DNA from: a virus | Strand: one strand, 5' to 3' | IMG/VR virus record: IMGVR_UViG_3300006749_000011 | Location: 1 to 64,000 of that record | DNA: 64,000 nt | Shown here: piece by piece, positions 50,146-64,000 of the stretch | Layout of the letters: every line of letters begins with the position of its first letter | How positions within the stretch are numbered: position 1 is the stretch's first letter | Notes under the pieces: model-generated | Seen by the model: only the letters and a program-made list of their open reading frames with translations | Told to the model about the DNA's origin: nothing | Database searches by the model: none | Position numbers and translations under genes: made by a program

Positions 50146-50670
50146 ATGATTATTTTAGGACTAGATATAAGTTCAAGCAGAATAGGTTATTGCTTGATAA
50201 ACGAAAACGAAGACCTGCTTCTTGTTGATGAGATAAAACTAAAACCATCTCAATCTCTCGAAGAACGTGCTGATATCTTCAAAAAAGAAATGGAATGTAT
50301 TATAAGGTCTTTACAACAACAGGAGGTAGATTATGTTTTTATTGAACAACCATTCGTGGCATTCTCGGGAGGCAAGACAACAGCAGCGACAATGGCCAAG
50401 TTACAACGTTTTAATGGTATGTGTAGCTATGTGGTGCACGATTTATTTGGCGGCCCTGCAACTCTCCTTCAGGCGAACAAAGCTCGGGGTCTCGTTGATC
50501 TCAAAATCAAAAGGGGTGATAACACGAAGCTCAAGGTTATTGAGTGGGTTAGTGATAAATATCCAAAAGAATTCATAGTTGAGTACACAAGACACGGCAA
50601 TCCAAAACCCGGAACCGATGATAAAGCCGATGCAATTGTTATAGCAAATGCTGGGTTAAAAACTATTTAG
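50146..50670 (+). CDS. RuvC-like Holliday junction resolvase
   Basis: ILGLDIS, FIEQP, DKADA acidic tetrad. Confidence 0.85.
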   Translation: MIILGLDISSSRIGYCLINENEDLLLVDEIKLKPSQSLEERADIFKKEMECIIRSLQQQEVDYVFIEQPFVAFSGGKTTAATMAKLQRFNGMCSYVVHDLFGGPATLLQANKARGLVDLKIKRGDNTKLKVIEWVSDKYPKEFIVEYTRHGNPKPGTDDKADAIVIANAGLKTI

Positions 50671-50681
50671 ACATAAAGAGG
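50657..50681 (+). repeat. Repeat B copy 1 (25 bp; candidate late promoter + RBS)
   Basis: TAAAAACTATTTAGACATAAAGAGG, identical to 51202-51226. Confidence 0.95.
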
Positions 50682-50688
50682 AATTATT

Positions 50689-51156
50689 ATGTCAAACGAT
50701 ATGAAACTTATAATGGAATCTTGGAGAACAAACCAACTTTTGTTAGAATCAGGCCAAAAAAATGTTATAAACTTTGCAAAAAACATTGCATCCAATAAAG
50801 TATCAGATGAAAAAATCGAACAGGTTTTTGATAAATTAGAGAAGAATGAAGACTTTTTAAAACTTGTAGATATCTTTAAAAAATTAGAAGAAGAACCTAT
50901 TGAAGAAGGAGCTTTGCTTGACGCTGAAGCAACAGTGTCGATTAAAGGAATGCAACTTATGGATTACATAAAAAGACAACCCGGCGGGAATGCTCTATTA
51001 AAAGCATCAGGCCCAATTATGGCTATGGCTTATATATATACCAAAATAAAAATGGGTCGAGGAGATCTTGACCCTACAGATCTACAATCCGCAGCCGAAA
51101 TAGCCACAAAAGGAACTAGTGCAGATCTTGTAGATATCGCCACTGGTGGTGGATAA
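50689..51156 (+). CDS. Hypothetical protein with MKLIMESW leader
   Basis: GAGG RBS; leader similar to that of 51234. Confidence 0.7.
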   Translation: MSNDMKLIMESWRTNQLLLESGQKNVINFAKNIASNKVSDEKIEQVFDKLEKNEDFLKLVDIFKKLEEEPIEEGALLDAEATVSIKGMQLMDYIKRQPGGNALLKASGPIMAMAYIYTKIKMGRGDLDPTDLQSAAEIATKGTSADLVDIATGGG

Positions 51157-51174
51157 AAAAAATAAAAAAATAAT

Positions 51175-51206
51175 TTGACAAATTTTCAAAACGTGTTATA
51201 CTAAAA
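51175..51206 (+). repeat. Repeat A copy 1 (32 bp; sigma70-type promoter)
   Basis: TTGACAAATTTTCAAAACGTGTTATACTAAAA (TTGACA-16-TATACT), identical to 51956-51987. Confidence 0.95.
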
Positions 51207-51226
51207 ACTATTTAGACATAAAGAGG
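51202..51226 (+). repeat. Repeat B copy 2
   Basis: Identical to 50657-50681; overlaps repeat A copy 1 by TAAAA. Confidence 0.95.
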
Positions 51227-51233
51227 TACCTTT

Positions 51234-51959
51234 ATGCAATTGATTATGGAAAACTGGAAACAATTTATAAAAGAAAATGTTGGCTCAAAGTTCAAAATTT
51301 TTTTAGATATGGACGGAGTTCTAGTAGCATTTACCAAAGGTCATGCAGAAGCCATCATAGCATCTATTCAAAAAGACCCAGAGACAATCAAATCTAAAAG
51401 TTCAAAAAAAATATTAAAAAAAATTAACGCCTATCAAGGAGAAGATCGAGAAGAGATTACCATAGACTTTTTAAATAATTTATTAGTTAAAAGAGACAAC
51501 AAACTTGAAATGACAAAGTGGGAAAAACTAATAAAAAGTTTTCAATTTAAACCAATAACCAACAACATGGACTATTGGGTTAATTTAGAAAAGGCTGAAG
51601 GTTGTGATGAACTAGTTAAAGGTTGCCGCGATCTTGTTGGCTATGAAAATGTTTACATTTTATCTGCTCCAATAAACAACGACGAAGGCTCTTATCAAGG
51701 AAAAATGGAATGGTTAAAAAACTCTGGTCTTGGCTTTGATGAGGAGCACATTATTTTAAATTCAGAAAAACAAGAAGTGACTGATCGGTTTCCAAACGCT
51801 ACATGTATTTTAGTAGATGATAGAGAAAAATATTTAAATAAATTTGCAGATGAAGATTTGGAAAATCCTGGAATTGGAGTGTTACATTCGCCAAAAGCAT
51901 CATTAAATGGAGCTAGCAACTCTTTAAACAAACTTAAAGAAATTATAAAAACTTCTTGA
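51234..51959 (+). CDS. HAD-family 5'(3')-deoxyribonucleotidase-like protein with N-terminal leader
   Basis: FLDMDGVL (motif I), ILSAP, K..W, K, LVDD. Confidence 0.8.
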   Translation: MQLIMENWKQFIKENVGSKFKIFLDMDGVLVAFTKGHAEAIIASIQKDPETIKSKSSKKILKKINAYQGEDREEITIDFLNNLLVKRDNKLEMTKWEKLIKSFQFKPITNNMDYWVNLEKAEGCDELVKGCRDLVGYENVYILSAPINNDEGSYQGKMEWLKNSGLGFDEEHIILNSEKQEVTDRFPNATCILVDDREKYLNKFADEDLENPGIGVLHSPKASLNGASNSLNKLKEIIKTS

Positions 51960-51987
51960 CAAATTTTCAAAACGTGTTATACTAAAA
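51956..51987 (+). repeat. Repeat A copy 2 (promoter of the primase gene)
   Basis: Identical to 51175-51206; contains the TGA stop of the upstream gene; GGAGG RBS follows. Confidence 0.95.
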
Positions 51988-52001
51988 TCACGGAGGAAAT
52001 T

Positions 52002-52937
52002 ATGGAGGAAAAAAGAAAGATGTTAACCGACATGCTCGGTTCATATCATCGTAAGGGTAATGAACATTTGTATCACTGTCCTTATTGTAAACACCACAAA
52101 AAGAAAATGTCTGTAAACTTTGCAAATGGATTCTTTAAATGTTGGGTTTGCGATATTCGTGGAAAGAACATTTACAGGATTGTAAGAAAATTTGGCAATT
52201 ACCAACAGAGGCAACGTTGGTTAGAGCTTGATGGTAGACTTGATCTCAAAGACTTTGATAAAATATATAAAGAAATAAACGAAATCGAAGAAGAGCCAAC
52301 CTGCGACCTGCCAAAAGAAATAATTTCTCTTTGTAATAAAAGACTTCCACGCTCATCTCGTAAAGCAATTGATTATCTTCACAATAGAGGTATTGACGAT
52401 TACCAAATAAAACTATGGAAAATTGGATATTGTACCGAGGGTAGATACGGAGGTAGAATCATTATCCCATCTTTCAATTCTAACGGAGATCCAAACTTCT
52501 TTATTGCTCGTTCTTATGTCGGACACAGAATGAAGTACCTCAATCCAAGAACCACAAAAGACATTATATTTAATGAATTAATGATTGACTGGGATGAGCC
52601 TGTTACAATTGTTGAGGGAGCCTTTGATGCTATCGTCGCAGGAACACAAGGCATTCCAATTCTTGGTTCAACTCTTAGACCACAGTCTCGTTTGTTTCAA
52701 GCTCTTGCGATAAACGACACACCAGTCTACATTGGTCTTGACCAAGATGCGGAGAAGAAAGCATCGTGGATGATTAAGAAAATGATTGAATACGACATGG
52801 AGGTCTACAAGATAGACACTTCTGCCGTTGAAGATGTCGGTTCTATGACTCCTCGACAATTCGAGAACGCAAAAGATAGGGCTCAACCTATAGACCCCGA
52901 CTATTTCTTTTTTGATAAATTACTAAACGCTATCTAA
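52002..52937 (+). CDS. DNA primase (Zn finger + TOPRIM)
   Basis: CPYC...CWVC, RIIIP, KYLN, VEGAFD, LDQD. Confidence 0.9.
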   Translation: MEEKRKMLTDMLGSYHRKGNEHLYHCPYCKHHKKKMSVNFANGFFKCWVCDIRGKNIYRIVRKFGNYQQRQRWLELDGRLDLKDFDKIYKEINEIEEEPTCDLPKEIISLCNKRLPRSSRKAIDYLHNRGIDDYQIKLWKIGYCTEGRYGGRIIIPSFNSNGDPNFFIARSYVGHRMKYLNPRTTKDIIFNELMIDWDEPVTIVEGAFDAIVAGTQGIPILGSTLRPQSRLFQALAINDTPVYIGLDQDAEKKASWMIKKMIEYDMEVYKIDTSAVEDVGSMTPRQFENAKDRAQPIDPDYFFFDKLLNAI

Positions 52938-52950
52938 CCATGGAGGATAT

Positions 52951-55900
52951 ATGATAAAAATAGCACACTTTGCGGATACACATATTCGTAATCTTAAATT
53001 TCATGACGAATACAGGTTTGTATTCAATCAGATATACAAAAAACTACAAAGCCAAAAGCCGGACTACATTGTTCATTGTGGTGACTTGGCTCATACAAAG
53101 ACACAGTTGTCACCAGAGTATTTTGCTCTGGCCTCTGAGTTTTTAAAGAATTTGGCAGACATAGCACCGACCTACATCATTCTTGGGAACCATGACGGTA
53201 ATCTAAAGAACTCTGATAGGGAAGATGCTGTATCGCCTATTGTAAATGCACTAAACCACCCACAGCTCCACTTGTTGAAGAACTCTGGTCGTGTTTCTCC
53301 ACAAGACGGTTTATGGTTCAATGTTCTTTCTATTTTTGATAGAGGTGCTTGGATGCGACCAAAAACCGGAGATATAAATATTGCTCTTTATCATGGTGCT
53401 GTTATGGGCTCTAGAACAGGTTCCGGCTGGGCTATGGAACACGGAGATGATGATATTAGTATCTTCAAAGGTCATGATTATGTTATGCTTGGAGACATAC
53501 ACAAACCACAGATTTTAGATACTGAGGGCCGCGTTCAGTATGCTGGTTCTACAATACAACAAAACTTTTCAGAGGACGGAAGAAAAGGATACAAACTTTG
53601 GACAATTAGATCAAAAGATGATTTTGATGCTCAACATGTTATCTTTTCAAATCCCCGACCATTTGTTACTATTAATCTAGATGACAAGGGCAAGATACCT
53701 CAACACTATCACATTCCACATGGGTGTCGTCTTAGACTAATCTCAACTGTAAACATGGATAGCTCATCCATCCGCAAAATTACCGATTTAGCGCGTTCTA
53801 AGTACAATCCGGTGTCTTTATCCTTTTTAAACAAAGGGACGTCTAATTTCACATCCTCAGACGGTCAAGAACACAAAATGGAGAATATGCGAGATGTCTC
53901 CGTTCAAGAGAGGTATATTCGAGAATATCTAAAAGATTATGAACTAGAAGAGGACTTGATGAGTCAAGTGCTAGATCTAAACACTAAGTATAATAAAGAG
54001 GTCGAGAAAATTGAAGAGGTACGAAGAAACGTCAAATGGAATATTAAAGAGATGGAGTTCTCAAATCTCTTTAACTATGGACAAGGTAATACTTTGGACT
54101 TTGCAAATCTCTCTGGAACTGTTGGCATTTTTGGCAAGAACTACAGTGGGAAGTCTTCTGTTATTGATTCTGCTCTTTATGGCATTTATGGCGGAACCAG
54201 CAAAGCCGAGAAGAAGAACGTTCACCTCGTCAATCAAAACAAAACTAAAGCCTCTATCAAGATGGTGGTCGAAGCAGATGGTCAAGAGTACCAAATTACT
54301 CGTAATCTTAATAAATCTTATAAAACCCAACGAGGAAAGTCCATCCCTGTGGCCTCTGGTGATCTTGACTTCCATAATCTCACTACCGATAGTTCTTGCA
54401 ACGGTGATTCTGTAAAAGATACTGAGGCTAACATAAGAAAGATTTTTGGTAATATTGAAGACTTCATGATTACTTCCATGGCATCACAGTTGGACTCTCT
54501 TGCATTTATCAAAGAAGGGTCTACAAAGCGTAAGAATAAATTGGCCAAGTTTCTTGACCTTGACATCTTTGAACAAAAGCTAAGCTTTGCAAAGAAAGAC
54601 TCTTCTGAGATATCCGCACTAATAAAGCGTCTTAAAAATAAAAAAATTACAGAACTGTTAGTAGCCAAGCAAGAAGAGATAGAAGAAATCAATGATGATA
54701 TAGACCACCAAACAGATTTGTGCAAAAAATACAACACACGTTACGAAGAACTACTTGAAGATTTTTTAAAGATAGAAGAAGAGATTAGTTCTATTCCACA
54801 AAATATCATTGATATTGATGAACTAGAAGATGAAATAGATCGTCTTGATTTAGAAATTCACAAAGCTGGTGTAAAAGTATCTGAAAACAAACAGCAGATA
54901 AAACAAAACCAACTTGCTATTCAACAAGCAGATGATATTGTAGACTCTATAAACAAACATAGGCTTACGAAAATTTTAGAGCAGTGTAGTGAGTTCGAAG
55001 AAGCTCTAAAGTCCTCAGAACAAGAACTTAAGAAGCTTAAAACAACAGAAAAACAATCTATTAAAAAAATCAATATGCTTCATGACCATAAGTACGATCC
55101 TGATTGTGAGTATTGCTCTAACAACAAATTTGTCAAAGATGCTACAAAAGCCAAAGATTATCTCCCAACTCTTGAAGAAGAGATTGAGGAAGTAGAAAAA
55201 ATAATTGATGGTTGGAAATTGAGTATCTTTGGCCTCGATAAAGAATCAGCTAAGAAAGAATTGCAAACTTTGGATAACAGTATAACTAAAAGAGACAAGT
55301 TTATGGCTACAAACAAGAATTTAGAAATAACAAACGAATCTCTTGTTTCTAGAATTTCTTTGATGGGTAACCAAAAATCATCTTTGGAACAAGAGCGAGA
55401 TGAATATAATGCTAACCGCCAAGCGATTGAAAATCTTTCCTCCTTGGTAAAATCTAAAAACGCAGTTAAGATAAAAATGTCTGAGTCCAAAGAAAGAAAA
55501 GAAAAATGTGACAAAAAGATTCAAGATTATCTTGTTGAACTTGGAGCTGTCAAAAGTACCATCAAGCGCCTTCATGTCGAAAAGCGAGAGCAAGATGAGC
55601 TGGAAGAGTCGTTTATTGCCTATGAGTTGTTTATGCGCTGTATGCATCCCAACGGAATTGCCTATGAGATAATTAAACAGAAATTGTCGCTTATTAACGA
55701 GGAAATACAAAAGTGTCTTGCAAATATTGTCGACTTTGAAGTTATGTTCGAAGAAGATGGTCGAAACCTTGACATAAATATCAAGCATCCAAAGTATGAC
55801 TCCCGTCCTATCTCCATGGGCTCTGGTGCTGAGAAGACAATTGCTGCCATGGCTATACGCCTCGCTCTGATTGAAATAACGAACTTACCCAAGTCTACTT

Positions 55901-56091
55901 TGTTTATTATGGACGAACCAGCAACGGCTCTTGACCAAGAACACATGGAAGGCTTTGTTCGTTTAATCGATATGATAAAGGATAAGTTCAAAACGGTGTT
56001 ATTGATTTCTCACTTAGATGTTTTAAAAGATTGTGTTGATAAGACGATAGACATACAAAAAGTCGGTGGTTATGCTAAAGTAAACTGTTAA
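52951..56091 (+). CDS. Fused Mre11/SbcD nuclease - Rad50/SbcC ATPase (gp47-gp46-like)
   Basis: DTH, GD, GNHD, GDIH; Walker A GKNYSGKS; coiled coil with CEYC hook; SGAE signature; MDEP; ISH. Confidence 0.92.
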   Translation: MIKIAHFADTHIRNLKFHDEYRFVFNQIYKKLQSQKPDYIVHCGDLAHTKTQLSPEYFALASEFLKNLADIAPTYIILGNHDGNLKNSDREDAVSPIVNALNHPQLHLLKNSGRVSPQDGLWFNVLSIFDRGAWMRPKTGDINIALYHGAVMGSRTGSGWAMEHGDDDISIFKGHDYVMLGDIHKPQILDTEGRVQYAGSTIQQNFSEDGRKGYKLWTIRSKDDFDAQHVIFSNPRPFVTINLDDKGKIPQHYHIPHGCRLRLISTVNMDSSSIRKITDLARSKYNPVSLSFLNKGTSNFTSSDGQEHKMENMRDVSVQERYIREYLKDYELEEDLMSQVLDLNTKYNKEVEKIEEVRRNVKWNIKEMEFSNLFNYGQGNTLDFANLSGTVGIFGKNYSGKSSVIDSALYGIYGGTSKAEKKNVHLVNQNKTKASIKMVVEADGQEYQITRNLNKSYKTQRGKSIPVASGDLDFHNLTTDSSCNGDSVKDTEANIRKIFGNIEDFMITSMASQLDSLAFIKEGSTKRKNKLAKFLDLDIFEQKLSFAKKDSSEISALIKRLKNKKITELLVAKQEEIEEINDDIDHQTDLCKKYNTRYEELLEDFLKIEEEISSIPQNIIDIDELEDEIDRLDLEIHKAGVKVSENKQQIKQNQLAIQQADDIVDSINKHRLTKILEQCSEFEEALKSSEQELKKLKTTEKQSIKKINMLHDHKYDPDCEYCSNNKFVKDATKAKDYLPTLEEEIEEVEKIIDGWKLSIFGLDKESAKKELQTLDNSITKRDKFMATNKNLEITNESLVSRISLMGNQKSSLEQERDEYNANRQAIENLSSLVKSKNAVKIKMSESKERKEKCDKKIQDYLVELGAVKSTIKRLHVEKREQDELEESFIAYELFMRCMHPNGIAYEIIKQKLSLINEEIQKCLANIVDFEVMFEEDGRNLDINIKHPKYDSRPISMGSGAEKTIAAMAIRLALIEITNLPKSTLFIMDEPATALDQEHMEGFVRLIDMIKDKFKTVLLISHLDVLKDCVDKTIDIQKVGGYAKVNC

Positions 56092-56101
56092 ATCTATTTC
56101 C

Positions 56102-56142
56102 AAAGCCTATTTAGTGTAAAAGCTATCTAGGCTTTTTCTTTT
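56102..56142 (+). terminator. Hairpin + T tract (intrinsic terminator candidate) overlapping a CTATTTA motif
   Basis: AAAGCCTA (56102-56109) / TAGGCTTT (56128-56135) inverted repeat followed by TTCTTTT. Confidence 0.55.
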
Positions 56143-56153
56143 GGAGATTAAAG

Positions 56154-56426
56154 ATGAAACTCACAGAAAAACAAATCAAAAAGATTATCAAAGAAGAACT
56201 CAATAAAATTCTTAAAGAAAGTATGAGCCCTGATCACCCTGACTATGATCATGTTGCTGGTATTATTATGAGAACTTTTCAAAACATGATGCACCTTGCT
56301 CCATTGGTAAAACAAGGCATGGGGCATATGTTCGAAAATGACATTTATCATCATGTTGCTGAGGAAGCTCCTGAGCATGCAGAGTATATAACCCAAAGAG
56401 TAATGCAAATGCTTAAGGAAGTGTAA
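56154..56426 (+). CDS. Small protein with MKLTEKQIKKIIKEEL leader
   Basis: GGAG RBS; leader shared with 57841 and 59814. Confidence 0.75.
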   Translation: MKLTEKQIKKIIKEELNKILKESMSPDHPDYDHVAGIIMRTFQNMMHLAPLVKQGMGHMFENDIYHHVAEEAPEHAEYITQRVMQMLKEV

Positions 56427-56701
56427 TGACTAGAGAAGAATTTTTAAAAGCAGGAGAAAAAATGGAACAAGAAAGAAAAGAAAGTCTGAAACAACAACTA
56501 TACCTTGACAATAAACAAAAAGGTATCCTTGATGCTCTACAAGAGAAAGCAATCTCTCGTAAGCTGCTTGTGTTTGTATCAGCAACAGCTTTGTTATGGA
56601 ACGCACAACTAGACCCTGAAACTTGGGGAATGATTGCTATGATGTATATTGGTGGACAAACCGCCGTTGACTTTGCCAAAATGTGGCGACACGGTGGTTA
56701 G
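56426..56701 (+). CDS. Holin-like membrane protein
   Basis: SRK followed by two short hydrophobic helices, YIGGQ..VD. Confidence 0.55.
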   Translation: MTREEFLKAGEKMEQERKESLKQQLYLDNKQKGILDALQEKAISRKLLVFVSATALLWNAQLDPETWGMIAMMYIGGQTAVDFAKMWRHGG

Positions 56702-56703
56702 TC

Positions 56704-57039
56704 ATGATCTGGTTGTACAAAGCAAAGAATTGGATTGTAGCTCATAAGAACTGGTTGGTTCTTATGGGTTTGTTCGTTTTATCTTATGCTCTTGGCAAGA
56801 AAGCAAACAAGAACTATCTTGAAATGGCTAACTTAGCTAAAAAACAATACAAGAAAGATAACGAAGAACTTGAGCATTTACAAAAAGCAAAACAAGCTAG
56901 AGATAAGAAAGCAAAACAAAAAGCAAAAGCTGTAAAGGTTGCTCTTGAATCTGAGAAAGAAAAAAGATTAAAAGAATTAGAAACACAAAAAGCTGATCCT
57001 GATGATGTCTTTAAAAACTTAGGAATAAAAAAGAAATGA
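56704..57039 (+). CDS. i-spanin-like protein
   Basis: N-terminal TM helix then Lys/Glu coiled coil; start moved to ATG 56704. Confidence 0.45.
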   Translation: MIWLYKAKNWIVAHKNWLVLMGLFVLSYALGKKANKNYLEMANLAKKQYKKDNEELEHLQKAKQARDKKAKQKAKAVKVALESEKEKRLKELETQKADPDDVFKNLGIKKK

Positions 57040-57425
57040 TTTTCTTACTATCTTTAGCATTTGCAGACGCACCCGAATACACCTACCTTGAAACAGGGGA
57101 ACCAGCTCCGTTTGCTGGTCGTTTGTTTAACGACGAAGCGTCACAATTGATAGCTAACCAAGTCCAAGATGCAACAGATAAGTGTCTTATTGAACTGGAC
57201 TATCAAGTCGGAATGGCTCTTGCAAAGAAAAACGAAGAAATTCAAGAGATAAGATCAAAGCATATCTACCAAAAGAAAGCCCTAGCATCTAAGATTGAAT
57301 CCCAACAGAAGCGGATAGAAGACTTGGAGAAATTAAAAACACCATCAAAGAAGGAGCTTTGGTTCTCTTTGGGACTAATTAGTGGTGTAGCAATCACTAT
57401 AGCTATAGCAAACGCGGTGAACTAA
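57036..57425 (+). CDS. Secreted coiled-coil protein with C-terminal TM (spanin-partner candidate)
   Basis: MIFLLSLAFA signal peptide, coiled coil, hydrophobic C-terminus; ATGA-coupled to the previous gene. Confidence 0.45.
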   Translation: MIFLLSLAFADAPEYTYLETGEPAPFAGRLFNDEASQLIANQVQDATDKCLIELDYQVGMALAKKNEEIQEIRSKHIYQKKALASKIESQQKRIEDLEKLKTPSKKELWFSLGLISGVAITIAIANAVN

Positions 57426-57427
57426 AA

Positions 57428-57844
57428 ATGTTAATAAAAATTATTAAAAAAGTAAAGGACTTGGTATGCCCACCAGCAACTCAGGACCTAGCTCTTAACA
57501 CAAAGAACCGAGATGCAACAATAAAAAAATATAATTACGGTCCTCTAAATGTTGACGAACCAGCAGATTACTGGAAAAAAATAGCTAAGTATTGGAAAAC
57601 AACTGAAAAAGCAGCTATGAAATCTGTGTGTTATAATTGCGTTGCCTTCGACATCTCTCCTCGTATGAAAGATTGTTTACCTGGAGATACTTTTGATGAT
57701 GACGGTATTTTAGGATACTGTTGGATGCACCATTTTAAATGTCATTCTGCTCGTGCCTGTCACACTTGGGCTAAAGGCGGACCAATAAAAAACAATAAAG
57801 AATCAGCAGAGTGGCAAAAGAAAAACTCTGGTGGTATGAAATGA
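57428..57844 (+). CDS. Cys/His-rich small phage protein
   Basis: CYNC...C...YCWMHHFKC...C..W. Confidence 0.6.
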   Translation: MLIKIIKKVKDLVCPPATQDLALNTKNRDATIKKYNYGPLNVDEPADYWKKIAKYWKTTEKAAMKSVCYNCVAFDISPRMKDCLPGDTFDDDGILGYCWMHHFKCHSARACHTWAKGGPIKNNKESAEWQKKNSGGMK

Positions 57845-58899
57845 AAATAACAAAACAAGATATAAAAAGAATGATAAAAGAAGAACTCCGAAGATTTCTT
57901 GATGAAGACTTATCATTATTAAGAGACATGACGCCCGGCGATGTTCTCGAGTACATGAGACGAGAATTGAACGGAAAGACTTGGTTTTTTTGGGATTTAG
58001 AAACAATTGGTTTTGATGGACAGATTACACAATATGGAGCTATAGCTTATAAGATTGATGATATTGATGGTCCGATTCCAACTAAGCCATTGGCCAGATT
58101 TGATGTAAATGTTGCTTTAAATGAAGAAACACTTGAAAGACATATTCTAGAACAGGACACAATAAACAAAGCAGATAAAGTTTTTAGTGATTTTGAAAAA
58201 ACCCGTGAGCGCACAAGAGAAATAGATTTTTTATTGAAATTACAAGATAAACGAAAAGAAGGAGTACCTTTCACTGTGGCTGATATGATTGGCTACACAA
58301 ATTATGTAACAAGACCCGACGACAGAACTGAGGTTGAAGCTATGGAAGAATTTCTAGCATGGGTTAAAGCTTTAGGTCCAAATGTTGTTTCTGTTGGTCA
58401 TAATATAAAGTCTTTTGACAGAAATAAAATTATAAAAGAAGGGCAAAAACTTGGAATTGATACCAAGGCTTTTGAACAAATAGATATCTTCGACACAGTA
58501 AACTTCCAAAGACAAGTGCTAAAGCAAATAGCACAGTATCAAATGGAACAAGGAGATCCGAGAATGACTCGTTTCTTTGACGGAAAAGAAAAAGAAATAA
58601 AAGGCGAAGTAAAAACCATAATGTCTTTCAATGGAAAACTTCAAAGAATGATGGATATATATGGACCAGGACCAGATTACATTCAATTGCACACGGCAAT
58701 TGACGACACAAGGCAACTAATTACTGCTTTTTTTAATATGTATACTGAAGTGAAAGACCTTATTATGACTAACGAAAAAATAAGAAACCTATCATCAGCT
58801 ATAAATGTACCAAGAGCACAAAAAGAACTAGGTACGAAAGATACAAAAGACCCATTAGATATCAGTAAAGCACTTAAACGAACAAAGAGGGGATTATGA
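57841..58899 (+). CDS. DEDDh 3'-5' exonuclease with N-terminal leader
   Basis: WDLET (ExoI), GHN...FD (ExoII), HTAIDD (ExoIII); start moved to ATG 57841 (ATGA overlap). Confidence 0.85.
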   Translation: MKITKQDIKRMIKEELRRFLDEDLSLLRDMTPGDVLEYMRRELNGKTWFFWDLETIGFDGQITQYGAIAYKIDDIDGPIPTKPLARFDVNVALNEETLERHILEQDTINKADKVFSDFEKTRERTREIDFLLKLQDKRKEGVPFTVADMIGYTNYVTRPDDRTEVEAMEEFLAWVKALGPNVVSVGHNIKSFDRNKIIKEGQKLGIDTKAFEQIDIFDTVNFQRQVLKQIAQYQMEQGDPRMTRFFDGKEKEIKGEVKTIMSFNGKLQRMMDIYGPGPDYIQLHTAIDDTRQLITAFFNMYTEVKDLIMTNEKIRNLSSAINVPRAQKELGTKDTKDPLDISKALKRTKRGL

Positions 58900-59270
58900 A
58901 AAAGAATGATCCAAACTATATTGTAAAAGTGGAAAAAGCAATTGCAGAAAAATACGGTGAAGAAGCAATTGATAATCCAAAGCGACACTGGACTGATGAA
59001 AAAGAGAAAGAATATGTAAAGCAACTAAAAGACCTTTACACAACATCAAACGAAAAAGACAACTTCCAAGTTGAAGTTGGTGGCGTTTTTATTGCAGAGA
59101 AACTAATTACGAAAGAATCTAAACGTTCTTGTCCTGTTTGTAATACTTATTCATTTAAATCAAGAGACGATGTCTATATGGCAAAATTTGATTGTTGTGA
59201 AAAATGTTATATTCAATGGATTGAAGGGCGCGAAGAACGATGGCTTAAAGGATGGAGACCAAATGAGTAA
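58896..59270 (+). CDS. Zinc-finger hypothetical protein
   Basis: CPVC...CCEKC. Confidence 0.65.
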   Translation: MKKNDPNYIVKVEKAIAEKYGEEAIDNPKRHWTDEKEKEYVKQLKDLYTTSNEKDNFQVEVGGVFIAEKLITKESKRSCPVCNTYSFKSRDDVYMAKFDCCEKCYIQWIEGREERWLKGWRPNE

Positions 59271-59817
59271 CACAACATTAGAAATTATACAAGGACTAGC
59301 ACAAGCAGCAGCAAACGTTTATGACGGAGCCCATGACGAAAGATTTTCCTATGATGGTGAATCAAGAACAATGGGTCTAAAACGAGAAGAAGGCTGTCCA
59401 ATAATGGACAGCAGAGTTATAGACGGATTTAAAGTTCGTTTTTATGGAGACTCAATGATTCTTTCATATCAATCAGATATCTTATTGAAAGAAGTTTATA
59501 CAGGTAGGTTTGAACAAGACATAGAATCTATGCTAAATGACATTAAAAAGTTTTTAGAAAAAGAATATAGAGCCGTAACAGGTAAATCTGTCTCTCTCAC
59601 TTCTAAAGGTGAGCCAAATATTCTTGTTCAATCAACATCAAGGGTTCGTTCTTTTGTTGAGGCTAACCAACATTTTAAAATTGGTGGAATAGAATCTATG
59701 CCGATTCTTGAACCCTCAATTGACACTACAAGAGATGTAACAAGAAAGTTTCTAGAACAATTTTCAGACAAGCGACCACCAAACGATAAACGTAAAAAAG
59801 GAGCAAGTTCAAAATGA
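59263..59817 (+). CDS. Hypothetical protein
   Basis: GGAG RBS before ATG 59263 (MSNTTLEIIQGL). Confidence 0.65.
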   Translation: MSNTTLEIIQGLAQAAANVYDGAHDERFSYDGESRTMGLKREEGCPIMDSRVIDGFKVRFYGDSMILSYQSDILLKEVYTGRFEQDIESMLNDIKKFLEKEYRAVTGKSVSLTSKGEPNILVQSTSRVRSFVEANQHFKIGGIESMPILEPSIDTTRDVTRKFLEQFSDKRPPNDKRKKGASSK

Positions 59818-60560
59818 AAATTTCCAATGAGCAATTAAAGCAAGTTATTCGTGAAGAATTAAACAAAGTTCTTAATGAAAATATAACTGAAAATGGCACT
59901 TATCCTATAATAAATTGGCAATTAATAGAAGAGCACGAAGATACAGATACTCCTTTTGAAATTAATGATGAAGTTGTTGAGATGTTTGCTGGAGATGACG
60001 ACACATGGATTCGAAACATCTTAGGTGATGAACGTGCCGATAAAATAAGAAAAATGTTTGAAGGAGAAACAGTAGCAGAGTTTTTTGGTAACCCTGCTAA
60101 TGGGCCAGCAGTTAACCAATTCTTTTCATTAGTAGAGACCTTAACAGACGTAGAAATAAAATATCCTGTTGGTATGTTGATTCTTGGTGGTGACACACAT
60201 ATTCGTGGATACAAATTTACCTTTGTTCCTGGTATTGGGTTTTCCTTTGTAGGCGAAAGCGAAAATTTGATAAGCGCAGTTGAAGCAGAGGGAACTGATG
60301 GTAAGGTTTACTTTGAACCGGGCTACACATCAACTGATAGTTTGTTTGGTAACATGGAATATGTTTTACAAAGATATGGTGTTTTAGAACTTGAAAAAGC
60401 AATAAGAATGCATGGTCGACGTTCCAGGTATAGCGGAACCTCAGTTGATGCTGTTAATTTAGATTTTAACAAACTTATAGAACTTTTAAATAATGGAACA
60501 TTAGCGGCTAAATGGAGCCATAGATATTACGGTTACATTATAACAACTCCCTATGAGTAA
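59814..60560 (+). CDS. Acidic protein with MKISNEQLKQVIREEL leader
   Basis: AGGAG RBS, ATGA overlap; leader shared with 56154 and 57841. Confidence 0.7.
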   Translation: MKISNEQLKQVIREELNKVLNENITENGTYPIINWQLIEEHEDTDTPFEINDEVVEMFAGDDDTWIRNILGDERADKIRKMFEGETVAEFFGNPANGPAVNQFFSLVETLTDVEIKYPVGMLILGGDTHIRGYKFTFVPGIGFSFVGESENLISAVEAEGTDGKVYFEPGYTSTDSLFGNMEYVLQRYGVLELEKAIRMHGRRSRYSGTSVDAVNLDFNKLIELLNNGTLAAKWSHRYYGYIITTPYE

Positions 60561-62146
60561 TGACTTTAAAACTATCAAAACAAGAAATAATAAAAGAAAT
60601 CCTTAAATGCGGCAAAGATCCTCTTTATTTTATAAATAATTATTGTAGGATCTCTCACCCTCTTAAAGGTTTAATTCCTTTTAACACTTATCCATACCAA
60701 GATGATTTGGTCAAGGACTTCAACGATTATCGCTTCACAGTTATCCTTAAAGCAAGACAGTTAGGAATCTCCACGATATCAGCTGCTTATGCTGTTTGGT
60801 TTATGTTGTTTCACAAAGAAAAGAATATCTTGGTCATGGCGACCAAGTTCGGAACAGCAGCCAACTTGGTAAAGAAAGTAAAAATGGTAATGAAAAACTT
60901 GCCAAAGTGGATGCAAGTAGCAAGTATTACAATTGACAACAGAACCTCGTTTGAACTATCAAATGGGTCATCAATCAAGGCAGTCGGAACATCAGCAGAC
61001 GCTGGTCGTTCAGAGGCGCTATCTTTATTAATTATAGATGAGGCAGCACACGTTGACGGCCTTGATGACCTATGGGCAGGTCTTTACCCTACTCTATCAA
61101 CAGGGGGTCGCTGTATTGCTTTATCAACGCCTATGGGCGTTGGAAACTGGTTTCATAGAACTTACATAGACGCAGAGAATGGAGACAATGAATTTCATCC
61201 TGTATCTTTGCCTTGGGATGTTCATCCTGAGCGTGATGAAAATTGGTTTGTTAAAGAAACCAAAAACATGTCAAGAAGACAAATAGCTCAAGAGCTTGAG
61301 TGCAACTTTAATACGTCCGGTGAAACCGTCATACATCCTGATGATATTCATTGGATTTACGAAATCCAACAAGAACCAGAGTACAAAACAGGCTGGGATA
61401 GAAATATGTGGATATGGGAAAAGTATCAAGAAGGTGTTCCTTATCTTATGGTTGCTGATGTTGCCAGAGGCGATGGAGCAGACTCTTCCGTATTTCATGT
61501 ACTAAGAACAGATACTATGGATGTAGTCGCAGAATATCAAGGTAAGCCAACTATGGATCATTTTGCAAAAATTTTATTTGATGCAGGAAAAGAATATAAC
61601 AATTGTCTTATGGTAATTGAAAACGTTGGTATAGGAATAGCAGCATGTGAAAAAGTAAGAGACCTTGGGTATCCTAATCTTTATTATTCAATTAAATCAA
61701 CTCATCAATATGTTGACTCTCTAGAAGGTGAATATAACGATAGAGCTGTTATTGGCTTTACTACTTCGATGAAAACAAGACCACTAATAGTAGCTAAGTT
61801 AGAAGAATACATAAGAAACAAATTGGTTAAACCAAAATCTTCTCGTTTGTTTCATGAGTTTAAAACATTCATATGGAACAATGGTAAGCCACAAGCTATG
61901 AGATCGTATCACGATGATTTAATTATGGCTCTTGCAATTGCTTGTTGGGTTCGAGACACAGCTCTAGAAGTTTCGGAAAAAGATAAGTTATATCAAGAAG
62001 CAATGATAAATTCTATTAAATCATCACAGACCACAATGAATACAGCTATCAAAGGAATGCGAGGCTTTGGTAGTACCAAAACACAAGAATCGTTAGAAGA
62101 CTTTCAAAAGACCTATAAAGATTTTGCATGGATTTTTAAAGGTTAG
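60560..62146 (+). CDS. terL: Terminase large subunit (T4 gp17-like)
   Basis: KARQLGIST, IIDEAA, STP.G, QE..C.F, DVARG..D, HDDL. Confidence 0.95.
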   Translation: MTLKLSKQEIIKEILKCGKDPLYFINNYCRISHPLKGLIPFNTYPYQDDLVKDFNDYRFTVILKARQLGISTISAAYAVWFMLFHKEKNILVMATKFGTAANLVKKVKMVMKNLPKWMQVASITIDNRTSFELSNGSSIKAVGTSADAGRSEALSLLIIDEAAHVDGLDDLWAGLYPTLSTGGRCIALSTPMGVGNWFHRTYIDAENGDNEFHPVSLPWDVHPERDENWFVKETKNMSRRQIAQELECNFNTSGETVIHPDDIHWIYEIQQEPEYKTGWDRNMWIWEKYQEGVPYLMVADVARGDGADSSVFHVLRTDTMDVVAEYQGKPTMDHFAKILFDAGKEYNNCLMVIENVGIGIAACEKVRDLGYPNLYYSIKSTHQYVDSLEGEYNDRAVIGFTTSMKTRPLIVAKLEEYIRNKLVKPKSSRLFHEFKTFIWNNGKPQAMRSYHDDLIMALAIACWVRDTALEVSEKDKLYQEAMINSIKSSQTTMNTAIKGMRGFGSTKTQESLEDFQKTYKDFAWIFKG

Positions 62147-62147
62147 C

Positions 62148-62187
62148 TTGACAAACAGCTAGCTTTATGCTATAATAGAACTATTTA
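62148..62187 (+). promoter_or_regulatory. Sigma70-type promoter plus ACTATTTA motif upstream of portal
   Basis: TTGACA 62148-62153, 17 bp, TG-C-TATAAT 62171-62176, ACTATTTA 62180-62187, AAGGA RBS. Confidence 0.8.
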
Positions 62188-62205: not shown

Positions 62206-64000
62206 ATGCCAAAATATAAAAAGTCGCCTTACAATCCACAGTCGGATTTATTCAAGGCTTTAACAAAATTGTTGTCCGGCCCAATAACACAAAGAAGAAC
62301 ACAAACTGGTCGAATGCTGCGGAGAAGACAGCTAGATAACTATGCAACAAAATTTAAATCAGCATCTGGTGCACAGTTTAAAAAATGGGAATATAATCCC
62401 ATAAACAACGTTACCCTTAACATGATATCAAATAGAAACAGAGCTGAGCGTTATGTTGATTTTGATGAAATGGAATACATGCCTGAGATAGCATCATCAT
62501 TGGATATTTATGCTGATGAGATGACAACTCATACTGCGCTTCGCCCAATGCTTAATATTAAATGTGCGAATGAAGAGATTAAACACATCCTCCATAACTT
62601 ATATCATAATGTTTTGAATATTGAACACAATCTTTTTGGTTGGGCAAGAACAATGTGTAAGTACGGTGATTTCTTTCTATATCTTGATATTGATGAAGAT
62701 TTAGGAATTCGATCCGCTATTGGTTTACCGACAAGAGAGATTGAGCGTCTTGAGGGAGAGGACCAAAGTAATCCAAATTACGTTCAATACCAATGGAACA
62801 CAGCAGGACTAACTCTGGAAAATTGGCAAGTTGCTCATTTCAGAATCCTTGGTAATGACAAACACTCTCCTTATGGAACATCTGTTCTCGAAGCTTGTAG
62901 GCGTATCCACCGTCAGCTTATACTATTAGAAGATGCCATGATGGCTTATCGTATTGTTCGTGCTCCTGAGCGTCGTTTGTTTAAGATTGACGTTGGTGGT
63001 ATTCCACCGCAAGAAGTTGAACAGTACATGCAAAAAGTCATGACTCAGTTAAAACGACACTCTGTTGTTGACCCAACCACTGGTCGTGTTGATTTACGCT
63101 ACAACCCCTTGTCAATCGAAGAAGACTATTATATACCAATTCGTGGAGGCCAATCAGCTACTGACATCTCAAGTTTACCAGGTGCTTCTTACAATGGTGG
63201 TATCGATGATGTTAAATACCTTAGAGATAAGTTGTTTGCTGCTCTCAAAATACCACAGTCTTACTTGACAATGGGTGAGGGCGCATCAGAAGATAAAACT
63301 ACCCTTGCACAAAAGGACATTCGCTTTGCAAGAACAATTCAAAGACTTCAACGTGTAGCAATAGCAGAACTCGAAAAGATTGGAATTATTCACCTTTACA
63401 CGCTTGGTTATAGAAACGATGATCTATTAACTTTCAAGCTACAGCTAAACAATCCGTCCAAAATTGCTGAATTACAAGAGCTCGAGCATTGGGACAAAAA
63501 GTTTCAAGTTGCTGCGAACGCAACAGAAGGATACTTCTCAAAGCGCTGGATAGCAGAAAACATGTTTGGGCTATCTGAAGATGAATTTCTTAGAAACCAA
63601 AGAGAAATGTTTTTTGACAAGAAGTACATGGCCAAACTTGAAGCGGCTGCTGCTGGTGGAGAAGGTGGAGAAGAACCTGGAGGAGGCGGTGGGCTTGCTG
63701 GTGGGCTTGGAGATCTTGGCGGAGCAGGTGGAGACTTAGAAGGTGACCTTGGTGGTGACCTTGGCGGTGGAGACACCGGTGGAGGTGATGTCGGCGGCGA
63801 CGAAGGGGGTGACACTGATCTGCTCGCCGAACCCTCTGCAAAACGTGATGAGCCACCACCAATTAGAGGAAACTATAAACGTCACCAGTCTTCTTATGAC
63901 AAAGGCGGCATGAAAAAATCAATGCTCGGAGCAACAGGTATAGAAGCTGCTCATTCAACTGGTCGTAACATATATAAAGGATACGTTGGGAACGAATATT
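62206..64000 (+). CDS. Portal protein (T4 gp20-like), 3'-truncated; absent from the ORF track
   Basis: My translation from ATG 62206 (MPKYKKSPYNPQSDLF...) stays open to the window end and contains LEDAMMAYRIVRAPERRLFKIDVG, EEDYYIP, DDVKYLRDKLFAALKIP. Confidence 0.95.
   Translation, partial: MPKYKKSPYNPQSDLFKALTKLLSGPITQRRTQTGRMLRRRQLDNYATKFKSASGAQFKKWEYNPINNVTLNMISNRNRAERYVDFDEMEYMPEIASSLDIYADEMTTHTALRPMLNIKCANEEIKHILHNLYHNVLNIEHNLFGWARTMCKYGDFFLYLDIDEDLGIRSAIGLPTREIERLEGEDQSNPNYVQYQWNTAGLTLENWQVAHFRILGNDKHSPYGTSVLEACRRIHRQLILLEDAMMAYRIVRAPERRLFKIDVGGIPPQEVEQYMQKVMTQLKRHSVVDPTTGRVDLRYNPLSIEEDYYIPIRGGQSATDISSLPGASYNGGIDDVKYLRDKLFAALKIPQSYLTMGEGASEDKTTLAQKDIRFARTIQRLQRVAIAELEKIGIIHLYTLGYRNDDLLTFKLQLNNPSKIAELQELEHWDKKFQVAANATEGYFSKRWIAENMFGLSEDEFLRNQREMFFDKKYMAKLEAAAAGGEGGEEPGGGGGLAGGLGDLGGAGGDLEGDLGGDLGGGDTGGGDVGGDEGGDTDLLAEPSAKRDEPPPIRGNYKRHQSSYDKGGMKKSMLGATGIEAAHSTGRNIYKGYVGNEY
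63655..63815 (+). repeat. Gly/Asp low-complexity coding repeat in the portal C-terminus
   Basis: GGDLEGDLGGDLGGGDTGGGDVGGDEGG; GC-rich; generates the Pro-rich reverse-strand ORFs. Confidence 0.8.

Follow-up and report, generated by a model that had tools for sequence, protein, structure and literature searches.

Why would proteins with no other resemblance begin with the same short peptide? The question is raised by the initial 64 kb (the window) of a marine phage record, 85.8 kb long and of the T4 superfamily, where five genes open with one of two leaders: type 1 at 56154, 57841 and 59814, and type 2 at 50701 and 51234, all as the initial annotation had located them. The record has a portal gene together with a Peptidase_S77 protease (E 1e-32) and a Gp23 capsid protein (E 6e-72), its TerL shares 44.6% identity with that of Flavobacterium phage immuto, and by its sequence the phage lineage is T4-like. 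The stretch is contained in marine metagenomes from several studies, no RNA dataset being listed among the sequencing runs that contain it. The answer that we favor, with a probability of roughly two in three, is that both leaders would be T4-style capsid-targeting propeptides, forming two address classes.

The features concerned are as follows (window positions, unless given as record positions).

50663..50669 (+): CTATTTA promoter-like motif within an exact 25-bp element (50657-50681) that also bears a ribosome-binding site
50689..51156 (+): ORFan, 151/155 aa, type-2 leader MKLIMESWRTNQLLLE at 50701-50748
51175..51202 (+): sigma70-like promoter, TTGACA, 16 nt, TATACT, 11/12
51208..51214 (+): CTATTTA motif, where the 25-bp element recurs (51202-51226)
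51234..51959 (+): NT5C/HAD-type 5'-(deoxy)nucleotidase, type-2 leader MQLIMENWKQFIKE at 51234-51275
56107..56113 (+): CTATTTA motif, ahead of tightly packed genes from 56154 into the terminase gene
56154..56426 (+): ORFan, 90 aa, type-1 leader at 56154-56219
57841..58899 (+): DEDD (RNase_T-like) exonuclease, 352 aa, type-1 leader at 57841-57906
59814..60560 (+): lineage-restricted ORFan, 248 aa, type-1 leader at 59814-59879, directly 5' of TerL
60560..62146 (+): large terminase, T4-type, context gene without leader
62148..62187 (+): perfect sigma70-like promoter, then CTATTTA (62181-62187), ahead of the portal gene
62206..64000 (+): portal gene, gp20-like, extending to record position 64122
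Record 64109, just outside the window: type-1 leader gene
Record 68090, just outside the window: type-1 leader gene, 2H phosphoesterase
Record 68587, just outside the window: type-1 leader gene, Pnk-like kinase
Record 69296-69940: S77 prohead protease
Record 69940, outside the window: conserved 139-aa protein with a leader-like start, 39-92% identity across relatives
Record 81732, outside the window: scaffold-like protein, 20 hydrophobic-x-Glu (h-x-E) sites in 346 residues
Record 82796, outside the window: capsid protein, gp23-like

Two leaders and the genes that carry them

The type-2 consensus, MKLIMENW..[FY][LIV].E, spans 14-16 aa and occurs twice in the record. The 25-bp element upstream of 50701 puts a Shine-Dalgarno sequence 7 nt ahead of the ATG at 50689, and since the identical element fixes this spacing, the protein probably starts MSND-MKLIMESW; MSND is retained in one of its orthologues. 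In the nucleotidase the HAD motif DMDGVL begins at residue 25, which marks the leader as an N-terminal add-on. CTATTTA directly precedes three of the five genes (50701, 51234 and 56154), as had been noted, and also lies upstream of genes for portal, scaffold and tail. The + strand has 21 occurrences vs two on the - strand, and in relatives the motif is about 12-fold enriched 5' of leader genes. Late-only expression is nevertheless a proposal, because the 51234 and portal genes also have strong sigma70-like promoters. The repeat containing the 51175 promoter is found again at 51935-51987, ahead of the primase gene.

The type-1 consensus, MK[IL]T..QLK.IIKEEL..VL.E, is 22 aa long and occurs six times in the record, three times inside the window and three times just beyond it. 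In the HMM scan of the whole record that the initial annotation had proposed, run against the six-frame translation of the 85.8 kb, the 22-aa HMM gave six matches at E 1e-10 to 2e-14, these being the same sequences from which it was built, and the seventh-best match had E 0.8. All six copies start at an ATG, the first of the frame in five, the copy at 68090 having a further ATG four codons upstream; in this genome the motif is confined to protein starts. Neither the HMM nor the N-termini show it in primase, Mre11-Rad50, RuvC, terminase or portal.

That likeness ends with the leader, as had been claimed, is borne out: the mature parts are mutually unrelated, a blastp cross-comparison within a nine-sequence database giving a best E of 0.015 over 28 residues. 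In the record the cargo comprises a DEDD exonuclease, an NT5C/HAD nucleotidase, a 2H phosphoesterase, a Pnk-like kinase and ORFans. Orthologues of the exonuclease were found on seven related stretches from five or six records, with the leader in all those whose N-terminus is present, and alignments of the kinase with its homologues in cultured phages begin at residue 14-28, mostly 21-28. The genes at 57841 and 59814 overlap the preceding stop with their start codon as ATGA. AlphaFold models the 59814 protein (pLDDT 65) with a leader helix (residues 5-21), followed by a disordered linker (23-47) and a globular domain; a Foldseek search of the PDB with this model found nothing similar at E <= 1e-3, and the ESM Atlas had no usable match. 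We also considered 59814 as the small terminase, and nothing in the model or in the Foldseek search points to it.

The description of the leaders as amphipathic is weakly borne out: their hydrophobic moments (0.33-0.57) exceed the shuffle means (0.22-0.26), p lying between 0.01 and 0.2 for single leaders.

Conservation and spread of the leaders

With relatives included, the type-1 set reaches 100 copies (six from the record), whose cargo forms 84 unrelated clusters. All copies share I12 and E14, and the information content, 2.66 bits at Glu22, is at most 0.66 bits beyond, a boundary measured on matches that had been picked by a 22-position model. Identity by codon position is 0.65, 0.77 and 0.51 for the first, second and third positions, and all synonymous codons are used at conserved residues (six for L8, three for I12). 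Selection on the type-1 leader thus acts at the protein level. An h-x-E is missing at position 22 in 29% of copies, and 94% have one ending within residues 18-30; this is a weak, common motif, present by chance in 26% of random 10-aa windows.

Related records hold from one to 11 leader genes. The S77 protease is present in 16/28 and 11/23 of them, most being fragments, and was found in all those at least 77% complete, with one exception given, at 72%. Five leader-bearing fragments without S77 are uninformative, because capsid protein and TerL are missing too, i.e. the head region is absent.

In public data the leader profile matched 13,786 representative protein clusters at E <= 1e-3, the best matches carrying two to four leader copies each. 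Since 40% of the internal copies are without Met, these are true polyproteins. An h-x-E stands just 5' of the internal copies in 69% of cases vs the 26% background, an enrichment that we treat cautiously: the E-(N/S)-K that recurs there could be left over from a Shine-Dalgarno sequence in fused genes.

These exact leaders are absent from the cultured phages examined. Leader profiles found nothing in Synechococcus phages S-8S55 and S-PRM1, Rhodothermus phage RM378 or Microcystis phage Mel-JY01, and Flavobacterium phage immuto has diverged variants only; the huge uncultured phage LR756508 gave 19 weak type-1 matches. A tblastn search with a 25-aa leader found no match in 50,697 phage records, an uninformative result given the short and filtered query. 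Literature searches with motif strings and for internal proteins of marine T4-like phages returned no description of the leaders in the library covered, although an earlier one may exist.

A probable capsid address and its alternatives

According to the favored capsid-targeting reading, tagged proteins would dock late in infection onto the prohead scaffolding core via their N-terminal helix, and a gp21-type serine protease would then cut following hydrophobic-x-Glu. In type 1 the proposed cut lies behind Glu22, with a second one probable behind the invariant I-K-E14; in type 2 it lies behind Glu14/16, and a second one is possible behind I-M-E6. The mature cargo would remain in the head and enter the host with the DNA. 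What the sequences show is the modular leader, its sharp boundary, selection at the protein level, the presence of the protease, the match to the capsid site and the position among head genes; from these we infer docking, cleavage, head retention and injection.

The protease is of gp21 type (PF03420 E 1.4e-32; phrog_207 E 1.5e-60) and its own first residues are MTKQLLTE. When gp23 sites are aligned, T4 FLTE↓A corresponds to LLRE59↓S in the record and to IVSE↓A in immuto (arrows mark actual or predicted cuts). LLRE59↓S is the predicted maturation site of the capsid protein and matches the leader ends, which read ILKE↓S, FLDE↓D, VLNE↓N, VLSE↓G and VLRE↓N. Leader genes occupy the portal-protease interval, which in T4 houses core genes 67 and 68, and are also present in the gene set running into TerL. 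The modular address tag put forward by the initial annotation is supported in silico, each of its predictions open to such a check being borne out: a gp21-type protease, a motif shared with the capsid site, its restriction to protein starts, its absence from replication enzymes and unrelated cargo in protease-bearing relatives were all found. Packaging, cleavage and injection are its inferred part, and a limit to it is that several of the cargos are enzymes acting on nucleic acids.

The mature cargo has a median pI of 5.0, with 66% below pI 6, and so departs from the small basic DNA-associated cargo of T4 IPI-III. Basic cargo is a trait of the T4 internal proteins and not of the targeting mechanism, Alt being an enzyme. 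In a relative, one type-2 leader is attached to an M23 peptidoglycan peptidase, a kind of virion enzyme that is typically ejected. The proposed cargo also takes in numerous ORFans that are small and acidic. The 2H phosphoesterase and the Pnk-like kinase are an RNA end-healing pair within it; T4 makes its RNA end-healing enzymes only post-infection.

Could the leader be a helix serving a purpose away from the capsid, such as docking elsewhere, oligomerisation or a tag for timed degradation? We consider this improbable, if still the most serious of the competing explanations. It would suit a helix that is charged and modestly amphipathic, some cargo enzymes that are cytoplasmic and not virion-borne in T4, and one leader gene with an early-type promoter, packaging being here a prediction from sequence. 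But it leaves unexplained why the block ends in a protease motif that is the same as the capsid maturation site, why leader genes lie between portal and protease, why leaders associate with S77-encoding phages and why they resemble the N-termini of T4 gp21 and Alt. Slightly less probable again is that the leader does target the prohead core and is cut, the proteins serving assembly like gp67/gp68 before being degraded or expelled. T4 core genes 67 and 68 are located between portal and protease, and 64109 and 69940 stand at their positions beside these genes; 69940 is conserved in relatives, and the scaffold-like protein is rich in h-x-E. T4 gp67 moreover has DLIKEEK...FLIE↓G, which by eye resembles the type-1 core, but we rejected this likeness as evidence, as the profile search of T4 misses it: against the whole T4 genome the profile reached a best E of 0.02, at an unrelated place, the peptides being short. 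Folded enzymes and thousands of non-conserved ORFans are unlikely assembly factors, and T4 proteins with a single N-terminal site are kept in the head, then ejected (PMC8442874).

A functionless peptide encoded by a nucleic-acid feature, either a recombination or shuffling cassette or an enhancer of translation initiation, seems very unlikely. Exact 25-bp and 32-bp repeats with promoter and ribosome-binding elements do frame both type-2 genes, and initiation is favored by A-rich 5' coding regions. Yet the leader DNA copies are just 65-73% identical in this genome, every synonymous codon is used across the 100 copies, and internal copies without start codon exist in polyproteins.

Whether a whole group of uncultured, abundant marine T4-like phages loads its heads by two addresses on a very large scale, with more than 10,000 protein clusters packed and injected, among them RNA-repair enzymes, nucleases and multi-module polyproteins, is a broader proposition to which we would give even odds. 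If it is true, the leader would be a sequence handle for pre-made counter-defence or takeover effectors acting before phage gene expression. Working tags would flag thousands of candidate injected effectors, likely anti-defence, in ocean viromes, make pre-loaded enzymes a common phage strategy and provide new packaging tags for phage engineering.

Comparison with T4 and other packaging systems

The T4 capsid-targeting tag is known from few internal proteins and is already in use for packaging foreign proteins. In T4, changing the Glu to Asp blocks cleavage. Like the leaders described here, it is a short N-terminal tag on unrelated, fast-evolving proteins, with a hydrophobic-x-Glu end and a gp21-type S77 protease; the type-2 end, F-I-K-E/F-L-K-E, resembles its end F-I-A-E. 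The facts on T4 that the initial annotation had cited agree with the literature (PMC8442874, PMC9026906, PMC5694885). The present tags differ in having 14 and 22 aa instead of 10, two predicted cut sites, two address classes in one phage, mostly acidic cargo that includes enzymes, and thousands of cargo clusters as well as polyproteins with internal leaders. Homology with the T4 tag is not demonstrable by sequence, and the system here is known from sequence alone. Compared with T4, the same logic would operate in a distant marine lineage, with two tags that are new and strongly conserved and with a range of cargo larger by orders of magnitude, including whole enzyme sets such as that for RNA end-healing.

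Among T4 propeptides, Alt has MELITE↓, cut at ITE-6, and gp21 has its own site at LIE-9 (PMC5694885, PMC9026906); Alt is itself a packaged and later ejected enzyme. The type-2 start M-K-L-I-M-E↓N-W fits their pattern of L-(I/L)-x-E plus an aromatic residue (LITE↓LF, LLIE↓TW), a six-residue pattern likeness and not a statistical match, type 2 having a second h-x-E eight residues on.

Propeptides of ejection or inner-body proteins in the giant phages phiKZ, 201phi2-1 and SPN3US are cut by S80 proteases after S/A/G-x-E (PMC5694885). They share with the present case head-internal proteins cut after Glu by a gp21-related protease, multi-site propeptides and identical N-terminal propeptides among paralogues, but involve another protease family and motif, propeptides that are long and non-universal, and proof by mass spectrometry. 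In phage P1, the first 30 residues of DarB suffice as a packaging signal, and here too it is by an N-terminal signal that an anti-restriction enzyme reaches the capsid, to be delivered from there (PMC9024508). In the part of that account drawn on here, the signal is described for DarB only, which is loaded last in a stepwise process with five other Dar proteins, and neither removal by a protease nor a tag common to other cargos is mentioned, whereas the leaders of the marine phages would be cleavable addresses shared by many proteins.

Leader copies and their cargo in the record

The record, a virus in IMG/VR, is 85,817 bases long and 47% complete (CheckV), the window being its bases 1-64000; all genes lie on the + strand, and the stretch is present in marine metagenomes from several studies. 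The five leaders of the initial annotation, three of type 1 (56154, 57841, 59814) and two of type 2 (50701, 51234, the two in the record), were all found in place. A type-1 HMM of 22 positions, searched against the six-frame translation of the whole record, brings the type-1 copies to six, at 56154, 57841, 59814, 64109, 68090 and 68587 (E 1e-10 to 2e-14 with an HMM built from these same six; next match E 0.8). All six start with ATG; in five no ATG precedes it in the open frame, and at 68090 one lies four codons upstream. Leaders end in ILKE|S, FLDE|D, VLNE|N, VLSE|G or VLRE|N. As claimed, the likeness stops there, no similarity being detected among nine proteins past their leaders. The proposed amphipathicity is present but modest.

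Leader genes and head genes (record coordinates)
50701, +: ORFan, type-2 leader
51234, +: NT5C/HAD nucleotidase, type-2 leader, DMDGVL motif from residue 25
56154, +: ORFan, type-1 leader
57841, +: DEDD exonuclease, type-1 leader
59814, +: ORFan, type-1 leader
60560-62146, +: T4-type large terminase (TerL), 44.6% identical to its counterpart in Flavobacterium phage immuto
from 62206, +: portal gene, next after the terminase
64109, +: ORFan, type-1 leader
68090, +: 2H/CPD-type phosphoesterase, type-1 leader
68587, +: Pnk-like P-loop kinase, type-1 leader
69296-69940, +, past the window: Peptidase_S77 prohead protease (Pfam E 1.4e-32; phrog_207 E 1.5e-60)
69940-70359, +: 139-aa protein with a looser leader variant ending I-F-E, adjoining the protease gene on its 3′ side
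82796-84718, +, past the window: Gp23-type major capsid protein (E 5.8e-72)

In the nucleotidase the DMDGVL motif begins only at residue 25, which makes the 14-aa leader an add-on. Alignments of the kinase with its homologues in cultured phages begin at query residues 14-28, mostly 21-28, at or just past the leader end; these homologues adjoin RNA ligase genes. For the 59814 protein, which has only nine close homologues among 5.8 billion sequences, the structure model places a leader helix at residues 5-21 and a disordered linker at 23-47, followed by a globular domain without structural match in the PDB.

Some leader genes are placed between portal and protease, the slot of T4 core genes 67 and 68; others lie within an overlapping gene set that starts at 56154 and ends in the terminase gene. 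None of the ORFs ahead of TerL was recognisable as a small terminase. The phosphoesterase and the kinase (68090-69306; 4090-5306 of L002, the record past the window) stand directly upstream of the protease, and synteny of the kinase-protease neighbourhood is kept in several relatives. These two look like an RNA end-healing pair, which would be preloaded in the capsid. The 139-aa protein on the other side of the protease (L002:5940-6359) has a leader-like start, MNKQELKKILKPLIKECIKEVIFE, and 39-92% identity in relatives; possibly it belongs to the prohead core, and the type-1 helix may have evolved from it or dock onto it.

Two neighbouring frames deserve mention. The ORF listed at 59170-59817 overlaps the preceding gene by 100 nt; its real start is likely the ATG at about 59263 (MSNTTLEII...), giving an ATGA overlap. 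At 52951-56091 a single ORF of 1046 aa, whose translation opens like a phosphoesterase (HFADTHIRN) and closes like an ABC-ATPase (LFIMDEPATALD), looks like a Mre11-Rad50 fusion (SbcCD-like).

Upstream elements

Both type-2 genes are accompanied by repeats:

50657-50691 and 51202-51236: copies with an exact 25-bp element that holds CTATTTA and a ribosome-binding site, one ahead of each gene
51154-51206 and 51935-51987: copies with an exact 32-bp element, a sigma70-like promoter (TTGACA-16-TATACT) inside

The 25-bp element is upstream of both 50701 and 51234. The first copy of the 32-bp element follows the first gene, and the second overlaps the end of the second gene, with the stop codon inside; from there it would drive primase expression. 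The arrangement resembles swappable cassettes bounded by promoters. Since the spacing of the ribosome-binding site fits, the first type-2 gene appears to start at ATG 50689, with MSND ahead of the leader, and an orthologue retains MSND.

The + strand has 21 copies of CTATTTA and the - strand 2. Twelve + strand copies lie about 15-125 nt (mostly ≤50 nt) upstream of starts, including those of the portal gene, a scaffold-like gene, four leader genes and several other genes located between protease and capsid gene. In relatives, 13% of leader genes have the motif in the 80 nt before them; the figure for random windows is 1.1%. We infer that it is a candidate late promoter; strong sigma70-like promoters are present at 51234 and the portal gene as well.

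Leaders in relatives and polyproteins

The type-1 core pattern matches more than 597 stretches in IMG/VR; all 29 confirmed matches begin ORFs, with unrelated continuations. Related records carry 1-11 copies each. The type-2 pattern MKLIMENW[KR]x[FY][LIV]xE gives 537 matches, and its 27 confirmed loci all lie at an ORF start or a few codons from an earlier in-frame ATG. Peptidase_S77 was found in 16 of 28 type-1 and 11 of 23 type-2 records, most of which are fragments. None of the records with ≥77% completeness lacks it, the three with ≥90% among them.

Across 100 type-1 instances picked by the 22-position model (six of them from this record and the others from relatives), the information content reaches 4.3 bits at I12 and E14 and 2.66 at E22, and is at most 0.66 from residue 23. 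A hydrophobic-x-Glu motif ends at position 22 in 71% and within residues 18-30 in 94%. These model-picked leaders precede 84 cargo clusters; only 7 of 87 cargos match a Pfam family, and median values for the mature part are 113 aa and pI 5.0. All synonymous codons are used at conserved leader residues, and selection therefore acts on the peptide, not on the DNA.

Among the type-2 cargo in relatives are an M23 peptidoglycan peptidase and an enzyme resembling cytidylyltransferases. The former is encoded in a related 140-kb phage record (L079:1501-2301); peptidoglycan endopeptidases are often carried in virions. Immuto has diverged versions of both leader types, one on its own NT5C nucleotidase. 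The uncultured 484-kb phage LR756508.1, with 39% identity to this phage in the terminase, shows 19 weaker type-1 profile matches (~143-220 kb), most clustered at 153-220 kb.

A profile from 91 leaders, run against 1.84 billion representative proteins, retrieved 13,786 at E ≤ 1e-3 and 209 at E ≤ 1e-10, the top-scoring ones with 2-4 copies each. The first residue is not Met in 69 of 171 internal copies, which are therefore real polyproteins. P0010, P0012, P0018, P0020, P0022, P0040 and P0107, public proteins of 300-720 aa, have 2-4 type-1 copies, several of them internal, without Met and between unrelated modules. In 69% of internal copies a hydrophobic-x-Glu lies ≤10 residues upstream, versus 26% of random windows; part of this excess may be left over from ribosome-binding sites of genes that fused. 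Internal copies argue against a purely translational role of the leader, and fit a cleavable module serving as both address and joint.

Proposed capsid targeting and the T4 system

We consider it fairly probable (about 0.65) that the leaders are capsid-targeting tags, the reading first proposed from the sequence, which all the available sequence evidence supports. In the MAFFT alignment the known maturation site of T4 gp23, FLTE|A, aligns with LLRE59|S in this capsid protein and IVSE|A in immuto. The type-2 start L-I-M-E|N-W resembles the N-termini of T4 gp21 (L-L-I-E|T-W) and Alt (L-I-T-E|L-F); the protease of this phage starts MTKQLLTE. Alt is cut at ITE-6, and it has been proposed that the LIE-9 propeptide of gp21 may guide this protease into the core (PMC5694885, PMC9026906). 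The likenesses to gp21 and Alt are short patterns, the leader profile giving nothing significant in T4. In T4 (NC_000866, - strand, 123450 and 125502) two ORFs share the start MELITELFD, Alt and a short ORF nearby whose first 61 residues are Alt-like.

The 10-aa T4 capsid targeting sequence (CTS) sends internal proteins, or whatever protein is fused to it, into the scaffolding core and is removed once by gp21; the cargo remains in the head and is then ejected (PMC8442874, PMC9026906). T-even internal proteins are varied anti-restriction proteins with only the CTS in common (PMC3012670), and its use as a general loading device for various proteins in T4-like phages has already been suggested (review PMC9026906). 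The leader motif strings appear in no phage paper within the literature searched. Compared with the T4 system, what is new is that a distant marine lineage has a pair of tags that are long and strongly conserved, that the cargo is enzymatic and acidic, that polyproteins occur, and the scale on which the tags are used.
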